From: a phage
Length of the DNA stretch: 64,000 bases
Sequence record: PZ452595.1
Strand: one strand, 5' to 3'
Under the pieces are notes generated by a model, which was given only the letters and a program-made list of their open reading frames with translations, did no database searches and was not told the DNA's origin. Both the position numbers and the translations under genes were made by a program. Shown in pieces: positions 5,813 to 63,370 of the stretch (position 1 is the stretch's first letter; the number at the start of each line of letters is the position of its first letter).

Positions 5813-6039
5813 TTATTTTTCTCAACCAATGATTGAATATAATCATGCAGGTCTTTAGATGCTTTACCCCACTTATTTTGATATTCATTTTTGAGATTAG
5901 CACGTGATTGAGCTAATAAAACATCATTAGTTGGAGGTAAAGATTCTAACCGCTGAATCTGGCGTCCATAAATCATTGCAGCCATCTCGGATTCATAAAT
6001 CAATCCTTTGAGATGTTCAAATTGATGCCATGAAATCAT
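5809..6039 (-). CDS. hypothetical protein (pseT.x block)
   Basis: 76 aa ORF, ATG start. Confidence 0.5.
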
Positions 6040-6335
6040 TTACATTTATCCTCTTTTAACTCTTGGCGATAATAACATATCATAGTTTTCTGGTCATGTA
6101 CATATCGTTTTACATCATTAAGCCAAATACGAAATTCCTGGGAATCTTCAAATTGCATACCGACCCAAGCTTTACCATCAATAACTTTAACTTGCCAAGA
6201 TAGTTTAGCTTCGTCATATGACTTTATTTGTACAGGCCAATTAGGATGAACTGTTTCTTTCTTTACTTCTAGAGGCTTTGTCGAACAACCAACTAGAAGA
6301 CCAATAGATAATATTACTGCTGATAGTTTAATCAT
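6036..6335 (-). CDS. putative lipoprotein
   Basis: 99 aa; N-terminal signal peptide ending in lipobox-like LLVGC (MIKLSAVILSIGLLVGCSTK). Confidence 0.5.
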   Translation of the reverse strand: MIKLSAVILSIGLLVGCSTKPLEVKKETVHPNWPVQIKSYDEAKLSWQVKVIDGKAWVGMQFEDSQEFRIWLNDVKRYVHDQKTMICYYRQELKEDKCK

Positions 6336-6685
6336 TTAGAAAGGTCCTGGATGTCTTCTGCGAACTTGTTGAAGGAGTTGTTAATTTGTTTTTCAACCAA
6401 TCCTGGCTTATGAGCCACCACATCCGCCTTCTTTGCGTCTTTGCGCAGTTTTTCATTTTCACGCTCAATAGCAGCAATTGCCTCACGATTTTTATTATTC
6501 ATCGCATCAATATAATTATACTGAATTCGCAAATTATTTAATGCTAAAGCGTTTTCATTGGCTGTTTTTGTAATTTCAGTAACTGATGTTTCTAATCTTT
6601 CTACCTTATTTTTTAAAATAATAGATGTTCCGCCAAATGCTATTACAAGTAATAGCAATCCAGCTGTAAAATTACTTACATGCAT
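6332..6685 (-). CDS. hypothetical membrane-anchored protein
   Basis: 117 aa; one N-terminal hydrophobic helix followed by a charged region. Confidence 0.5.
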   Translation of the reverse strand: MHVSNFTAGLLLLVIAFGGTSIILKNKVERLETSVTEITKTANENALALNNLRIQYNYIDAMNNKNREAIAAIERENEKLRKDAKKADVVAHKPGLVEKQINNSFNKFAEDIQDLSK

Positions 6686-7182
6686 AAAGTTTTAATAACC
6701 TCTATAATATCGTCTTGAGAAAGACCGTTAATTAAAATATGATGTTCAGCTGGAGATTTAGAAATTTTAAAGCATGCCTCAACATCTTCTGCCATATCCG
6801 ATGCACTACGATTTGGATTACTAATACCAAGGCGGTGTTTTCCCGTCAAAGGATTAACGATGATATAGCATTTGCAGCTATTGATATGAACATTGGGTTG
6901 AGTCTGATTAATGAACACTTCACAATCATACTTAGCGAGTTGATTTTCTAAAAAGACTTTCATCTCTTCAACCGCATCAGGAAGCATATCACGGGCTTGC
7001 TCAAGACGACGATTTCGATATTCTTTAATGGTCGTTTTCCGCTTGACTTGTTTAGCTAAATCTTTCTTAAGATCAGTGATATATCCAACTCGACGATTTC
7101 CTTTGAATACAGAAATCCCATCTGTAGTATCACCGTATGCTTCAACGACCATTTCAGTAGTAATAAGCTGCAAATCCATCAT
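6676..7182 (-). CDS. alc: Alc, inhibitor of transcription from cytosine-containing DNA
   Basis: 168 aa (MM start); length and position between rnlA and the pseT.x ORFs match T4 alc. Confidence 0.85.
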   Translation of the reverse strand: MMDLQLITTEMVVEAYGDTTDGISVFKGNRRVGYITDLKKDLAKQVKRKTTIKEYRNRRLEQARDMLPDAVEEMKVFLENQLAKYDCEVFINQTQPNVHINSCKCYIIVNPLTGKHRLGISNPNRSASDMAEDVEACFKISKSPAEHHILINGLSQDDIIEVIKTLCM

Positions 7183-7210
7183 AAAGTCCTCATGTTATGT
7201 TAGTAAGACT

Positions 7211-7240
7211 ACTATAACACAACACGAGGGACTTGTAAAC
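7211..7240 (-). promoter_or_regulatory. T4-type early promoter upstream of alc
   Basis: Minus sense GTTTACA, 17-nt spacer, TGt-TATAGT. Confidence 0.55.
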
Positions 7241-7243
7241 AGC

Positions 7244-8831
<1,588 letters not shown>

Positions 8832-8860
8832 AATAAAATGGGCCTTGCGGCCCACTCCTT
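8832..8860 (-). promoter_or_regulatory. structured ribosome binding site of denA
   Basis: Minus sense: AAGGAG, then 16-nt hairpin UGGGCC-GCAA-GGCCCA (GNRA loop), then 7 nt, then ATG; SD to ATG is 23 nt linear. Confidence 0.5.
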
Positions 8861-10037
8861 AAAAGTATTTTTTAAAACTCATCATAACTTTATCATCAAC
8901 ATCATTATCAATCTGTGCAACAAGGTAAGATGACAGTTCTACTTCTTGTGGCGCGGATTGAACATTATCAGAATTAAGATATTCACGAATCCAAGGATAC
9001 GGATGTTTAACCGGAGCATCGGTAATTGGGCATGGAAGACCACACTGTTTCATACGAGATACAGTTAAGTAATCAATAAAGCTCCACATGCTATTTGTAT
9101 TTAATCCAGGAACATCGCCGTCTTTAAATAAATGAACTGCCCAATCTTTTTCTTGGCGGTTAACTTCCATGAAAATATCAACTGCTTCTTGTTCACACTC
9201 TTGAGCAATTTTAACCCATTCATCGCCATCAGTGCCAAGTTGAAGTTGACGAATAATATATTGAGTGCCTTTAAGGTGAAGCTGCTCATCACGTGCAATG
9301 AACTTCATAATCTTGGCATTACCTTCCATGATTTCCATGTTTTTATGGAAGTTAAAGGTACATGCGAAAGATACATAAAAACGAATAGCTTCCAATGCGT
9401 TGATTACATGCAAACAGAGGTAAAGAGATTTCATTAGCTCACGCTTCCAATATGTCTCATGCTCAATAGCATCTTCAATAACGTCTTCGTCTGCATTAAT
9501 TTCTTTTTGGTATTCGATATCAGCTTTAGCGTTTTCCCAATAACGAGTTTTAATCAGAACATCATCATAATAACGTCCAATGGATTCAGCACGTTTCATA
9601 ATAGCTTCATCTAATACAATTTCATCAAATACCTTCGATGGATCAGTATAAAGATTTCGCATGATATGTGTATATGAACGGCTGTGAATAGTTTCACTAA
9701 AAGTCCACGTAGCAACCCATGTATCAAGGCTTGGGTCTGAAATTAATGACATAAGTACAGCAGACGGCGCACGACCCTGAATGCTATCCAAAAGTGATTG
9801 ATACTTCAGATTATTAGTAAAAATATTTTGCTGATACTGAGGAAGCTTATTAAACTGTGCAGCATCCATCATCAAGTTTACTTCTTCAGGACGCCAGAAA
9901 AATGATAATTGCTTTTCGGTTAAATCTTCAAAAACTTTATGACGTTGAATATCATAACGCGCAATACCAAGACCTGAACCAAAAAACATAGGTTCTTTTA
10001 AAACATCAACTGGATTTGTATTAAAAACTGTGCTCAT
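8859..10037 (-). CDS. nrdB: ribonucleotide reductase small subunit, uninterrupted
   Basis: 392 aa continuous ORF with ATG start; directly downstream of nrdA. Confidence 0.95.
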   Translation of the reverse strand: MSTVFNTNPVDVLKEPMFFGSGLGIARYDIQRHKVFEDLTEKQLSFFWRPEEVNLMMDAAQFNKLPQYQQNIFTNNLKYQSLLDSIQGRAPSAVLMSLISDPSLDTWVATWTFSETIHSRSYTHIMRNLYTDPSKVFDEIVLDEAIMKRAESIGRYYDDVLIKTRYWENAKADIEYQKEINADEDVIEDAIEHETYWKRELMKSLYLCLHVINALEAIRFYVSFACTFNFHKNMEIMEGNAKIMKFIARDEQLHLKGTQYIIRQLQLGTDGDEWVKIAQECEQEAVDIFMEVNRQEKDWAVHLFKDGDVPGLNTNSMWSFIDYLTVSRMKQCGLPCPITDAPVKHPYPWIREYLNSDNVQSAPQEVELSSYLVAQIDNDVDDKVMMSFKKYF

Positions 10038-10088
10038 AAATTTTCCGCTTAGTTAATAGATAGTGACTCGTCCATGAGTCAAATTATA

Positions 10089-12353
10089 TCATAATTTACA
10101 GGATGAACAATCTTCAGCTTTTGGAGTTTCTATTTCATAATCATCAGTACCAGAACCATCACGGGTATTATGATAATAGAAATTTTTTCCGCCAAAATAC
10201 CAAAAATACAAAAGGTCATCAATCATTATTGACATTGGAACCTTGCCTTTAGGGAAGATTTGGGGGTCATAATATGTATTCGCTGAAGCTGATTGACACA
10301 CCCATTTCAGCATAATAGCTACCTGCGTAAGATAAGGTTTATTACCTTTCTTAGCTAATTTCCATGTATAATCATAGAGGTCTATGTTATGCTCAATATT
10401 GGGCACGACTTGATTAAAGGAGCCCTCTTTTGATTCTTTAACAGAGACTGGTCCACGTGGAGGCTCGATACCGTTTGTACTGTTAGAAACTTGGGAAGAT
10501 GACTCACATGGCATAAGTGCTGATAATGTGCTATTACGGATGCCAAAGAGCTTAAGGTCTTCCCGCAGCGACGACCAGTCACAAACGTATTTTGGAGCTG
10601 CGATTTGGTCAATCTTTTTATTGTACCAGTCGATAGGTAATTCGCCTCGAGACCAACGAGTGTCTGAATAATATTCGCAAGGTCCTTTTTCTTTGGCGAG
10701 CTTAATGGATGCTTTAATGAGTCCATACTGTAATCTCTCAAATAGTTCATGTGTTAAATCGTTAGCATCTTCATAAGAAGCAAAGTTACTTGCCAGCCAA
10801 GCTGCATAGTTAGTAACACCTACACCGAGGTTACGACGCTTTTTAGCTTTTTCTGCTTCAGGAACTGGATATCCTTGGTAATCCAAAAGATTATCAAGAG
10901 CGCGAACTTGAACTTCTGCCAATTCATTAATTTTATCTTGGTCTTGCCAGTCAAAATTATCTAGTACGAATGCAGAGAGAGTACACAATCCAATTTCAGC
11001 ATCAGGACTATTCACATCATTTGTTGGAATAGCAATTTCACAGCACAAGTTACTCTGACGAATAGGTGCCTTTTCACGAATAAACGGAGTATAGTTATTC
11101 GTATTATCAATGAACTGTACATAAATCCTTGCTGTTCCTGAGCGTTCAGTCATGAGCAATTCAAATAGTTCACGGGCTTTAATACGCTTTTTACGAATAT
11201 TAGGGTCTTTTTCTGCTGCTTCGTATAATTCACGGAAACGGTCTTGGTCTTTAAAATAAGAATAATAAAGCTCGCCACCCATTTCATGCGGACTGAACAA
11301 AGTAATGTAATCGTTCTTTCCAAAACGTTCCATCATCAAATCATTCAGCTGAACACCATAATCCATATGACGAATGCGGTTTTCTTCTACACCTTTGTTA
11401 TTTTTCAAAACGAGAAGATTTTCAACTTCCAAATGCCAAATAGGATAATAAGCAGTAGCAGCGCCGCCACGAATTCCACCCTGTGAGCATGATTTAACAG
11501 CAGTCTGAAAATGTTTCCAAAAAGGAATAACCCCAGTATGGCGTACTTCACCCATGCCAATCTTAGAACCTTCGGCACGAATCATACCAACGTTAATACC
11601 GATTCCAGCTCGTTTGGAAATATATTCAACAATTGAAGCAGAAGCCTTATTGATAGACTTCAGCGAATCTCCTGCCTCAATAACAACGCATGAACTAAAC
11701 TGTCGAGTCGGAGTACGACAACCAGCCATAATAGGAGTTGGCAATGAAATCTGTCGAGTAGATACTGCTTCATAAAAACGAATAACATGTTTTAATCTAT
11801 CAACAGGTTCATCTTGATGCAGTGCCATTCCAATAGTCATAAATGCAAACTGCGGAGTTTCATAAATTTGACCAGTGGTTTTATCTTTAACTAGATATTT
11901 TTCTTTTAATTGCATCGCCCCGGAATAAGTAAATTCCATATCCCGCTCGTGCTTAATTTTTGATTCTAAAAATGTAATTTCTTCTGCTGAATATTTTGAC
12001 AATAATTCAGGGTCATATTTACCTTCATTTACACAGTAAGAAATATGGTCAATAAATGAACGTGGTTCATACTGCCCATAAACATGCTTACGAAGAGCAA
12101 ACATTAAACAGCGTGCAGCTACATATTGATAATCAGGTTCTTCAACCGAAATAGAATTCGCAGCAGCCTTAATGACAATAGTCTGAATGTCATCAGTTGT
12201 CATTCCATCACGGAGATATGATTTAATATTTTCATATAATTCATAAGGATCTACTGATGTTCCCTCAGCTGCCCAAGATAAAACTTTAATAATTTTTTGT
12301 GGGTCAAAGCTCTGAGAAACACCACTACTTTTGATAACATTAATTAATTGCAT
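10089..12353 (-). CDS. nrdA: ribonucleotide reductase large subunit
   Basis: 754 aa, [25 protein letters not shown]...; ATP-cone N-terminus and class Ia active-site cysteines; same length as T4 NrdA. Confidence 0.96.
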   Translation of the reverse strand: MQLINVIKSSGVSQSFDPQKIIKVLSWAAEGTSVDPYELYENIKSYLRDGMTTDDIQTIVIKAAANSISVEEPDYQYVAARCLMFALRKHVYGQYEPRSFIDHISYCVNEGKYDPELLSKYSAEEITFLESKIKHERDMEFTYSGAMQLKEKYLVKDKTTGQIYETPQFAFMTIGMALHQDEPVDRLKHVIRFYEAVSTRQISLPTPIMAGCRTPTRQFSSCVVIEAGDSLKSINKASASIVEYISKRAGIGINVGMIRAEGSKIGMGEVRHTGVIPFWKHFQTAVKSCSQGGIRGGAATAYYPIWHLEVENLLVLKNNKGVEENRIRHMDYGVQLNDLMMERFGKNDYITLFSPHEMGGELYYSYFKDQDRFRELYEAAEKDPNIRKKRIKARELFELLMTERSGTARIYVQFIDNTNNYTPFIREKAPIRQSNLCCEIAIPTNDVNSPDAEIGLCTLSAFVLDNFDWQDQDKINELAEVQVRALDNLLDYQGYPVPEAEKAKKRRNLGVGVTNYAAWLASNFASYEDANDLTHELFERLQYGLIKASIKLAKEKGPCEYYSDTRWSRGELPIDWYNKKIDQIAAPKYVCDWSSLREDLKLFGIRNSTLSALMPCESSSQVSNSTNGIEPPRGPVSVKESKEGSFNQVVPNIEHNIDLYDYTWKLAKKGNKPYLTQVAIMLKWVCQSASANTYYDPQIFPKGKVPMSIMIDDLLYFWYFGGKNFYYHNTRDGSGTDDYEIETPKAEDCSSCKL

Positions 12354-12670
12354 AAGTCCTCAACTTGAAAATCGTCTTTAAACAATCGGTTAACTATATG
12401 AGCTATTATATCACCATGACACGGCTTTGGTTTACATGTGCATCCTAGCCTCATTCCACGTAAAGGCTCTAAATGTGCTTTAGTTATTTCTCCGGATTTA
12501 ATTCGACGTATAAAATCTTTTTTGAATAATTCAATGGCAGCCTCCCGGCTGCCAGCATCTTTACCGACGTAATTTCCCCAAAATGTACCACGGTGAATAT
12601 TAACATCAAAGTCGGATTTATATTTATTCACTACCCGACATAGACGGCCCGCGCGGTGATAATTCGGCAT
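12344..12670 (-). CDS. hypothetical protein with C-x-C-x4-C-H-G-D motif (nrdA.1 position)
   Basis: 108 aa, ATG start; conserved-looking [12 protein letters not shown] segment; stop overlaps nrdA start. Confidence 0.6.
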
Positions 12671-12887
12671 ATTGTTTTTCCGTTAAAACAGTAATATCAT
12701 AATAACAGTCAGAAGAAATTTTAATGGTGGAAACTTTATTATCAAAATACTCACGGGTCATTTTATGAGTATAATATTTTTTGCCATAAATGATAATAGG
12801 CTGATTTGGTCCTGGAACTTCTAACTCGCTTGGGTTAGGAAGTGTAAAAAGAACAACGTCAGAAGTATCTTTAAATCGTAAAATCAT
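12624..12887 (-). CDS. hypothetical protein (nrdA.2 position)
   Basis: First ATG at 12887 (87 aa); the track start at 12899 is a TTG; overlaps the next ORF by 47 nt. Confidence 0.45.
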
Positions 12888-12907
12888 AAATCCTCGCAAT
12901 AATAAAA

Positions 12908-13767
12908 TTATACCGCCATCTTTCCTTTAATTGGCGGGTGAGATACATAGTCGTTAAGAACAAAATTATGCGGCTTTGCGAATTGACTCAACCAAAATAC
13001 CTGTGATTCTGTGTCCCATTCATCAAATTCATCTGGGAATTTTAATTGTAATTCGCATAAATCCATAGGTTCACGACGCAAAATTTCTTTACATTGTTCT
13101 ACGTGATTCATATAGATATGAGTATTACCGCCAGAAAATATCAAATCTCCCGGAATAAGATTACATATCTTAGCTACAATATGAACTAACGCAGCATATG
13201 ATGCAATATTAAATGGAAGACCGAGGAAAACATCTACTGATCGTTGATACCACTGAAGGTCAAGGTATCCATTACGAACATTAAATTGATAGAACATATG
13301 ACAAGGTGGTAATGCCATCTGCTTGAGTTCAGCTGGATTCCATGCTGAAACAATTTGACGCCTATCATTTGGCAGTTTTTTAATACGATCAATAACTTCT
13401 ATAATTTGGTCTACACCACCAAAATCACGCCACTGTTTTCCATAAATTGGACCAAGTTCACCGCTATGGTATCCTAAATCTTTTGCTTGATTTTCGTAAT
13501 TTTCATCCCAAACTGTTTTGCCTTGGATTAACGAATCATGTTGAATTAATCGCAAATCATTGACATTTGTGCTTCCCGATAAAAACCATATTAGCTCAGC
13601 AATGCAAGCTTTCCAGGCGAGCTTCTTAGTTGTTACTGCAGGAAAACCTTTAGTTAAATCCCAGCGTAATTTAGTACCGAACAAAGCAATTGTTCCTGTG
13701 CCTGTTCGGTCATCGGTTTCGTAGCCATTTTCCAGGATATCTTTAATTAAAAATTGGTATTGTTTCA

Positions 13768-28842: not shown

Positions 28843-28847
28843 TAAGA

Positions 28848-28861
28848 GGGGCTTCGGCCCC
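28848..28861 (+). promoter_or_regulatory. intercistronic hairpin between genes 37 and 38
   Basis: GGGGC-UUCG-GCCCC immediately followed by the gene 38 SD GGAGG; no U-run. Confidence 0.4.
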
Positions 28862-28873
28862 TTGGAGGTTTAT

Positions 28874-29650
28874 ATGGCAGTAACAGGACCGTGGGTAGGA
28901 TCGTCTGCAGTAGTTAATACAGGACAAAATTGGATGGGTGGTGCCGCGCAGAGATTGAGAATGGGAATTCCGTTTTGGATGAGTAATATGATAGGTCGAT
29001 CTGTTGAAATAATTCACACGCTTGGAGCAGACCATAACTTCAATGGTCAATGGTTCCGAGATAGATGTTTTGAGGCAGGTAGTGCACCTATAGTGTTTAA
29101 TATCACTGGAGATTTAGTATCATATTCTAAAGATGTTCCTTTATTCTTCATGTATGGAGATACACCCAATGAATATGTTCAGTTGAATATACACGGCGTA
29201 ACGATGTATGGTCGTGGCGGTAATGGCGGTAGCAATAGTCCTGGCTCAGCTGGAGGTCATTGTATTCAAAACGATATTGGTGGGAGACTAAGAATTAATA
29301 ATGGTGGAGCTATTGCAGGCGGCGGTGGCGGCGGTGGCGGCGGATATTATTCTCCTTTTTCACAAATGAGATTGACCTTTGGCGGCGGCGGTGGGCGTCC
29401 GTTTGGTGCACCTGGCGGATCTATTGATATGCAATCAGGAGCGACTGGCGGTACTATTTCTGCACCTGGCTCAGGATCCGTGAATGGTATCTATAATGGT
29501 GGAAACGGTGGTGAAGTAGGTTCCGCGGGAGGTAGATGCAATATTCGCGGTCAAGGATCTGAATATAATGGCGGCGATGCTGGTTATGCCGTCATAGGGT
29601 CCGCTCCAACGTGGATAAATGTTGGAGCAATATATGGTCCAAGAGTATAA
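28874..29650 (+). CDS. 38: gp38 receptor-binding adhesin, T2-type with polyglycine motifs
   Basis: ATG at 28874 with GGAGG 5 nt upstream (258 aa; the track frame adds 4 codons from a TTG); C-terminal half has Gly runs ([20 protein letters not shown]) separating short variable segments. Confidence 0.88.
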
Positions 29651-33161: not shown

Positions 33162-33187
33162 AAAAAGGGAGAGCCGAGGCTCTCCCT
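33162..33187 (-). terminator. rho-independent terminator downstream of the 52 / motA.1 unit
   Basis: Stem GGGAGAGC / GCTCTCCC with 4-nt loop, then U-run in minus sense. Confidence 0.6.
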
Positions 33188-53712: not shown

Positions 53713-53739
53713 GAAAAAAAGGACTCCCGAAGGAGTCCT
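53713..53739 (-). terminator. rho-independent terminator after soc
   Basis: AGGACUCC-UUCG-GGAGUCCU followed by UUUUUUU in minus sense; identical to the element at 361..383. Confidence 0.65.
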
Positions 53740-53744
53740 TGAAT

Positions 53745-63348: not shown

Positions 63349-63370
63349 AAAAAGGGACCCGGAGGTCCCT
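63349..63370 (-). terminator. rho-independent terminator after gene 43
   Basis: GGGACC-UCCG-GGUCCC followed by UUUUUC in minus sense, directly after the gp43 stop. Confidence 0.6.

Follow-up and report, generated by a model that had tools for sequence, protein, structure and literature searches.

The junction between nrdB and denA, the gene for endonuclease II, on a 64,000-nucleotide stretch of phage DNA (PZ452595.1, called the window here in its full length) is probably a hairpin-split ribosome-binding site (RBS) of the T4 gene 38 type, and this site is probably combined with partial termination of transcription. The window is a segment of a Tequatrovirus (T4-like) genome, in which positions 8400-9100 share 100% identity with Escherichia phage vB_EcoM_G4507 and 98% with T4. 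A stem-loop lies wholly between a Shine-Dalgarno (SD) sequence at the nrdB stop codon and the denA AUG, and its folding would leave 7 nt, a workable spacing (about 5-11 nt). The mechanism class is already known, and the denA junction would be the third case after T4 genes 38 and 25; in the literature searched, with several key papers beyond reach, the denA junction is not described as a split RBS. The features referred to below are as follows.

8859-10037, minus strand: nrdB coding sequence, 392 aa, intronless (open reading frame (ORF) list; 100% match to the annotated nrdB of MK327946)
8861-8859, minus strand: nrdB stop codon UAA (sequence)
8860-8855, minus strand: SD sequence AAGGAG, which shares AA with the nrdB stop codon (sequence; RBS annotation in X04140)
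8854-8839, minus strand: core hairpin UGGGCC-GCAA-GGCCCA, 6 bp with a C(GCAA)G GNRA tetraloop
8854-8849, 8848-8845 and 8844-8839, minus strand: 5' arm, loop and 3' arm of the hairpin
8838-8832, minus strand: U-rich single-stranded spacer UUUUAUU, also the U-tract of a possible intrinsic terminator
8831-8829, minus strand: denA start codon AUG
8421-8831, minus strand: denA coding sequence, endonuclease II, GIY-YIG, 136 aa and stop (ORF list; annotated homologues)
8855-8853, minus strand: in-frame GTG, taken as the denA start by AF158101.6 and NC_000866.4 (144 aa) but probably not the genuine one
10089-12353, minus strand: nrdA

The minus-strand junction reads UAC UUU UAA GGAG UGGGCC GCAA GGCCCA UUUUAUU AUG, with 27 nt between the nrdB stop and the denA start; an overlapping stop and start codon (ATGA, TAATG), a feature of translational coupling, is not found there. 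The original prediction, made from the DNA letters alone, had placed AAGGAG 23 nt before the ATG with two bases in common with the nrdB stop codon, and a 16-nt GNRA-capped hairpin in front of denA. Both statements agree exactly with the sequence: the SD lies 23 nt from the AUG, too far in linear form (the limit being about 15 nt), and removal of the 16 nt of the hairpin leaves 7. The accompanying claim that AAGGAG is the only SD-like sequence is not strictly correct. A second SD-like string, AAGG (8846-8843, in the loop and 3' arm), occurs 11 nt before the AUG; the 1986 entry X04140 marks two potential RBSs for denA, AGGA at the stop codon and this AAGG. The AAGG is buried in the helix, however, and is gone in relatives with UUCG loops.

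RNA folding, named in the original prediction as a way to check the hairpin, gave a structure far better than shuffled sequences. For the 39-nt junction the calculated energy is -16.4 kcal/mol (z = -3.9), which 1 of 200 dinucleotide shuffles matched; the 16-nt hairpin alone folds at -11.6 kcal/mol, and the folding z is -3.1 for the 101-nt context. The minimum free energy (MFE) structure adds four weak G.U/A-U pairs (GGAG with UUUU) to the 6-bp core. The duplex of AAGGAG with the 3' end of 16S rRNA was calculated at -8.7 kcal/mol, and cofolding with the 16S 3' tail produced a UAAGGAG:CUCCUUA helix abutting the intact 6-bp hairpin, with UUUUAUU-AUG single-stranded. The hairpin is thus predicted to persist while the SD pairs and to bring it to about 7 nt from the AUG, as had been proposed. 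The T4 gene 38 junction cofolded with the 16S tail showed the same behaviour.

To place the junction among its relatives, denA loci from IMG/VR and from named phages were compared, with DenA identities from 99% to 58%. The named phages belong to Tequatrovirus, Mosigvirus, Gelderlandvirus, Winklervirus, Kanagawavirus and Marfavirus, together with unclassified Klebsiella and Serratia phages, and the set comprises 24 distinct types of nrdB-denA junction, drawn from six or more genera of Tevenvirinae. Apart from one variant (L028, discussed below), all loci with denA immediately behind nrdB show a common anatomy: a UAA stop that shares bases with an SD-like (A)AGGA(G), then, after 0-2 nt, a 5-7-bp GC-rich stem with a stable loop, a 6-10-nt spacer, and the AUG. 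The loop is UUCG in most junctions and GCAA or GUAA in the T4 type, with UUUG, UUAG and CUUGA as rare forms, and relatives have 26-32 nt from the nrdB stop to the denA AUG, almost all of them 26-28 nt.

Covariation was assessed on 23 distinct aligned sequences, centred on the loop of each sequence's own hairpin, a choice that leans towards structure. Standard pairs fill 90% of the pair cells, changes on both sides occur in 4 of the 7 pairs, and one stem position shows A-U, G-C, U-A and C-G among the homologues. Compensatory cells numbered 25, against 9 ± 3 in shuffles (0/500 as many), and slid registers collapse. This pairing, the compensatory changes and the collapse of slid registers argue for the hairpin as a selected structure, so that its conservation across T-even denA leaders, on which the original prediction had been made to depend, is borne out over the 24 junction types.

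The position of the SD is conserved along with the stem. A strict SD tetramer (GGAG, GAGG or AGGA) lies single-stranded between stop and stem in 16/24 junction types, and 23/24 have a 5' SD when the definition is relaxed (AAGG allowed, or a motif reaching up to 3 nt into the stem), while the spacer ahead of the AUG is free of SD-like tetramers in every type (0/24, the window included). Duplex energies with 16S rRNA follow the same division, at -4 to -9 kcal/mol for the segment 5' of the stem and near or above 0 for the one 3' of it. For background, arbitrary IMG/VR GGGCUUCGGCCC hairpins with an ATG within 12 nt were sampled; a 5' SD was present in 4/30 gene-start families and 7/45 non-starts (Fisher p about 1e-4, illustrative only). 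Other hairpins that precede genes in the window (37597, 35155 and 16154 on the minus strand; 28847 on the plus strand) are all followed by a conventional SD, and in Krischvirus, where denA is not adjacent to nrdB, the SD again lies 3' of the hairpin. These phages therefore normally use a conventional SD. In the nrdB-denA arrangement the only available SD is upstream of the helix.

A screen for split sites was also applied. It admitted a start that had an SD at -15 to -35 but none at -3 to -12 and, between SD and start, a single hairpin of -6 kcal/mol or better that leaves 3-12 nt unpaired. When the hairpin-internal AAGG is counted as a near SD denA drops out, and the final version avoids this. 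On T4 the screen recovers the known split RBSs of genes 38 and 25. Among 430 ATG-initiated ORFs of the window it returned denA (-13.1 kcal/mol) and an internal ATG of gene 37 (-7.0), which makes denA the only genuine gene start picked out among these ORFs; shuffled upstream regions gave about 1 match at the same loose threshold.

The closest known parallel is the T4 gene 37-38 junction (Gold 1988, reviewed in PMC3014915 and PMC7297116), gcaUAAGGAGAGGGGCUUCGGCCCUUCUAAAUAUG, in which UAAGGAG at the stop is followed by an adjacent UUCG hairpin, a short spacer and the AUG. Both junctions have a UAA overlapping AAGGAG, an adjoining GC-rich hairpin with a C-G-closed tetraloop, and an SD-less spacer, and folding shortens the SD-to-start distance in both, from 22 to about 5 nt in gene 38 and from 23 to 7 nt in denA. 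They differ in the loop (GCAA in denA of the window, UUCG in T4 gene 38 and most denA relatives), in the spacer (a U-tract with terminator character in denA, CUAAAU in gene 38) and in timing, as denA is annotated as prereplicative and gene 38 is a late tail-fibre assembly gene. They also differ in the kind of evidence, which is experimental for the gene 38 site and comparative for the denA site. Mutations that destabilise the structures of genes 38 and 25 have been reported to lower initiation (PMC3014915; PMC7297116), and these two are the only T4 split RBSs named in the literature searched (PMC3014915; PMC7297116). With the gene 38 parallel, every sequence-level prediction that follows from a hairpin-split site at denA (stem, 5' SD, spacer and cofold being the others) agreed with what was found.

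The window's own gene 37-38 junction (28847-28876, plus strand) precedes a T2-type gene 38, a 262-aa ORF. Its hairpin, AGGGGC-UUCG-GCCCCU, is followed by a conventional SD, UGGAGG, and the AUG; a T4-type gene 38 in the compared set (L053, 1620-1652) is split instead.

Gene 25 (Nivinskas et al. 1999; Malys and Nivinskas 2009) provides a further comparison. Its SD, GAGG, lies 27 nt upstream and is brought to about 11 nt by a hairpin (PMC3014915), an arrangement that close T-even phages share and distant T4-like phages lack (PMC3014915). The gene 25 stem is AU-rich and weak (about -7 kcal/mol) and its SD lies within the gene 26 coding sequence, with a stop/start overlap UAAUG, whereas the denA stem is GC-rich and the denA element is wholly intergenic. 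The denA hairpin also resembles the intercistronic T4 hairpins of the C(UUCG)G and C(GNRA)G kinds (Tuerk et al. 1988, summarised in PMC4371310), with which it shares an extra-stable C-G-closed tetraloop, and UUCG and GCAA swap among denA homologues. That class is defined by stability, however, while for the denA hairpin a specific function can be proposed from where it stands relative to SD and AUG. In E. coli thrS (Sacerdot et al. 1998, cited in PMC7297116), too, the 30S subunit tolerates a hairpin inside the RBS; there the hairpin stands between an upstream single-stranded enhancer and a normally spaced SD and acts as an operator for ThrS, whereas for the denA hairpin no protein ligand is known or implied. 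Finally, the denA element looks like T4 intrinsic terminators, such as the mobE hairpin, in its short GC-rich stem, 4-nt loop and U-rich tract after a gene. It is unlike the mobE terminator in that it sits between an SD and a start codon 7 nt away, and in that its U-tract is unconserved whereas the SD position and spacing are conserved.

These observations suggest how denA could be translated. The gene would be read from transcripts running through nrdB, as no promoter pattern of its own was seen. The anti-SD of a 30S subunit would pair with the UAAGGAG overlapping the nrdB stop while the 6-bp tetraloop hairpin next to it keeps its fold and takes 16 nt out of the path, so that the 7-nt UUUUAUU linker alone would part the SD helix from the AUG, a workable spacing, unlike the linear 23 nt. 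A ribosome terminating at nrdB would have to melt the hairpin and then release it. Because the SD sits on the nrdB stop and the terminating ribosome melts the hairpin, ribosomes that finish nrdB may take turns with de novo initiation at denA or supply it. In T4-type phages, the hairpin with UUUUAUU probably also terminates part of the transcripts, and would then be an attenuator that keeps endonuclease II, a dC-DNA-specific nuclease, low.

The termination component was evaluated with a d'Aubenton-Carafa-type score, an aspect that was not part of the original prediction. The hairpin with UUUUAUU has a tail score of 3.94 and d = +24.7, within the range of terminator-like window hairpins (+15 to +45) and away from that of hairpins merely preceding genes (-29 to -57). 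The internal positive controls for the score were four long perfect minus-strand hairpins with U-runs (33166-33187, 53719-53740, 364-383 and 63353-63370); the hairpin at 33166-33187 has an A-run on its other side and may be a bidirectional terminator. The terminator scan of the window did not list the denA hairpin, which in our reading is no argument against a terminator because its greedy G.U stem extension consumes the U-tract. In the relatives, d is below 0 in 14/25; two types are without any U-tract, and in L032/L033 the stem is followed by GUAAAGCU or AUAAAGCU. The experimentally validated T4 terminator inside mobE, at which 30-50% of transcripts end (PMC2790892), has a score of -27 in the same script. 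A weak U-tract in relatives therefore does not exclude termination, and the d-score is not decisive. As there is no denA promoter pattern in nrdB, denA probably needs read-through, so that an attenuator is a plausible device for a nuclease gene. Partial termination in T4-type phages is thus likely, and a split RBS can go together with it, the two readings not being mutually exclusive. In these phages the element is probably bifunctional, and what the alignments present as conserved across the whole set is the SD position and spacing, not the U-tract.

Several points weigh against a split site at denA. In the T4 type, hairpin and U-tract are equally a textbook intrinsic terminator, by the score above and by annotation, since MK327946 ('putative transcriptional terminator') and MN395284 both label the hairpin as one. 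The modelled MFE of the free T4-type RNA includes the GGAG.UUUU pairs, which partly, if lightly, mask the SD. The compared sequences are phylogenetically related, and the shuffle and Fisher statistics overstate their independence. Hairpins immediately preceding an AUG often lack any 5' SD in other phage families, so a hairpin beside a start is by itself no evidence of a split RBS. In the variant L028 (IMGVR_UViG_2974786931_000001, 1480-1510) both SD and hairpin are absent: the nrdB end, TAC TTA TGA, overlaps the denA ATG (TTATGA), a coupling-type overlap seen there only, and denA is therefore apparently expressible by pure translational coupling. No experimental results on the denA junction, mutational, probing or toeprinting, were found in the literature searched. 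The nrdB C-terminus of L028 is T4-like and its DenA is like that of L024, which suggests a recombinant junction; L028 also suggests that nrdB-terminating ribosomes may feed denA initiation in the standard arrangement.

Much of this could be accommodated if the hairpin were only a terminator and/or a 3'-end stabiliser of the nrdA-nrdB message, with denA weakly translated from read-through, either SD-less, with help from protein S1 and the U-rich leader, or through termination-reinitiation, and with AAGGAG incidental or serving another purpose. The GC-rich 6-bp stem, stable tetraloop and UUUUAUU with their d value, the two annotations, the negative score of a working terminator such as mobE (which deprives the poor U-tracts of relatives of decisive weight), the coupling layout of L028 and the many phage genes that begin right after a hairpin without an SD are all in keeping with such a role. 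We nevertheless regard it as a minority possibility, as the U-tract is the part that varies, L032/L033 included, while the 5' SD and the spacer length are kept. The non-coding SD-like AGGA just past the stop, retained across genera, wants explaining, these phages otherwise put a normal SD after intergenic hairpins, and the identical cassette of T4 gene 38, where destabilisation is reported to lower initiation, has CUAAAU in place of a U-tract. A role of the GGAG at the hairpin base chiefly as a site for the RegB endoribonuclease, whose GG/AG cleavage would part nrdB from denA and inactivate the denA mRNA after the early period, is very improbable. The motif is present in T4-type junctions, but the strong-site consensus GGAGRAYARAA (PMC3014915) is not matched by the sequence, GGAGUGGGCCG; secondary structure is protective (PMC3014915) and the MFE has GGAG paired at the base of the stem; and most relatives have GGAU, GGAC, GGAA or GGU rather than GGAG.

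A further alternative does away with the split site altogether by starting denA at the GTG at 8855-8853, which would place the hairpin inside the coding sequence and make an unusual RBS unnecessary. The GTG is in frame and open through to the ATG, and the curated T4 records AF158101.6 and NC_000866.4 (137517-137951) adopt it, giving a denA of 435 nt and 144 aa that starts inside the hairpin, 3 nt past the nrdB stop. The 136-aa ATG form is instead used by the original entry X04140, most phage records, UniProt-based proteomics and the crystallised enzyme (2WSH), in which MKEIATEY follows the tag. An in-frame upstream start is present in only 7/27 distinct junction types, the rest having a stop or no start codon, and in the alignment of 14 DenA homologues M1 is invariant and the N-terminus conserved. 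The eight extra N-terminal residues are not conserved as protein, whereas the same nucleotides covary as an RNA stem. Also, AAGGA abuts the GTG and therefore has no usable spacing to it. The records, the structure, the 7/27 count, the invariant Met and the RNA-type covariation together support the ATG as the denA start, and we give the GTG hardly any credence.

In one relative, the Klebsiella phage PhiKpNIH-6 (MN395284.1; L051, locus 1343-1773), the annotation wrongly gives denA as an internal ORF of 45 aa with an RBS of its own, likely because no conventional RBS precedes the true start at locus position 1365; the hairpin is labelled a terminator there.

With these data, the denA junction would stand beside T4 genes 38 and 25 as a third, phylogenetically well-supported natural hairpin-split RBS. 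New here are the comparative support, the probable dual role and the correction of the reference annotation; the AGGA at the stop was already marked in the 1986 entry. The product of denA degrades cytosine-containing host DNA (dC-DNA) as a prereplicative function, according to the T4 record annotation, and if the same 16-nt hairpin also attenuates transcription, one element could set both the RNA and the protein dose of a dC-DNA nuclease. For annotation, the comparative data favour the 136-aa ATG start over the 144-aa GTG start of the reference T4 records. With its 24 stem variants and one natural deletion, the junction is also a compact natural system on which the fitting of a helix between SD and P site by the 30S subunit could be studied.

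The cassette TAAGGA, GGGCUUCGGCCC hairpin, 5-12 nt and ATG was also found before at least 8 other gene families on non-T4 IMG/VR contigs (L061-L140). These families include 92-aa MAYS..TI.RIG.APKTLGNQLGRWA proteins, 67-aa MAVIYLRH..HGAKVA proteins and a 633-aa ORF starting MKKKISIDFETYSECD. In the control sample, relatives of such proteins (M.IYL.HP.HG.KVA; 92-aa M[AP]YS...LGRW) often keep the hairpin without the 5' SD. It is conceivable, though we consider it rather doubtful, that stop-overlapping SD, tetraloop hairpin, SD-less spacer and AUG form a reusable intercistronic module that hands the 30S subunit of a terminating ribosome to the next start while attenuating transcription, deployed independently by T-even phages at nrdB/denA and 37/38 and with look-alikes in unrelated phages. 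Split RBSs are not claimed to be widespread, because in the control without the TAAGGA requirement a 5' SD was found in 4/30 only.

Other assignments of the hairpin were tried and set aside. A chance hairpin was rejected. The PeSL cassettes of T4-type phages, reportedly described by Arbiol and colleagues in 2010, are said to pair a stem-loop with a neighbouring early promoter; next to the denA hairpin, promoter patterns of the early, middle and late kinds were all absent. On the plus strand, CUCCUUAAAAG comes after the hairpin, with no U-run at the stem and only short unsupported ORFs overlapping, and an antisense role was dismissed for lack of an abutting U-run or a supported ORF. An Rfam scan of 6000-13000 gave a chance-level L20_leader match only (22 bits against a gathering threshold of 58.7, E = 0.66).

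The genes around the junction are in keeping with their annotation, denA matching PDB 2WSH at E = 6e-88. No late, MotA-box or early-type promoter pattern for denA was found between nrdA and denA, the 3' part of nrdB included. The nrdA-nrdB spacer (10038-10088, minus strand, 51 nt) has no mobE insertion, and nrdB is without an intron. It holds a hairpin, UGACUC-AUGGAC-GAGUCA, flagged as terminator-like by the scan, and a TATGATATAAT stretch; phages without mobE are reported to have no terminator between nrdA and nrdB (PMC2790892).

The gene downstream of denA, also on the minus strand, is rnlA. The denA-rnlA intergenic region (8369-8420, minus strand), TGCTTCCACATGGAGTGTGGTACTAT, contains a MotA-box-like TGCTT and a -10-like TACTAT, together with a small hairpin, CCACA-UGGAG-UGUGG, with GGAG in its loop, followed by a normal rnlA SD, AGAGGA. 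The region may be a middle promoter and/or a RegB-type site, in which case denA would be the only gene depending on read-through past the nrdB hairpin. In T4, denA belongs to the 'middle' temporal RNA class and its neighbours nrdB and rnlA both to the 'early' class (PMC9697503 supplements), and the DenA protein has been detected during T4 infection (PMC9697503 supplements).

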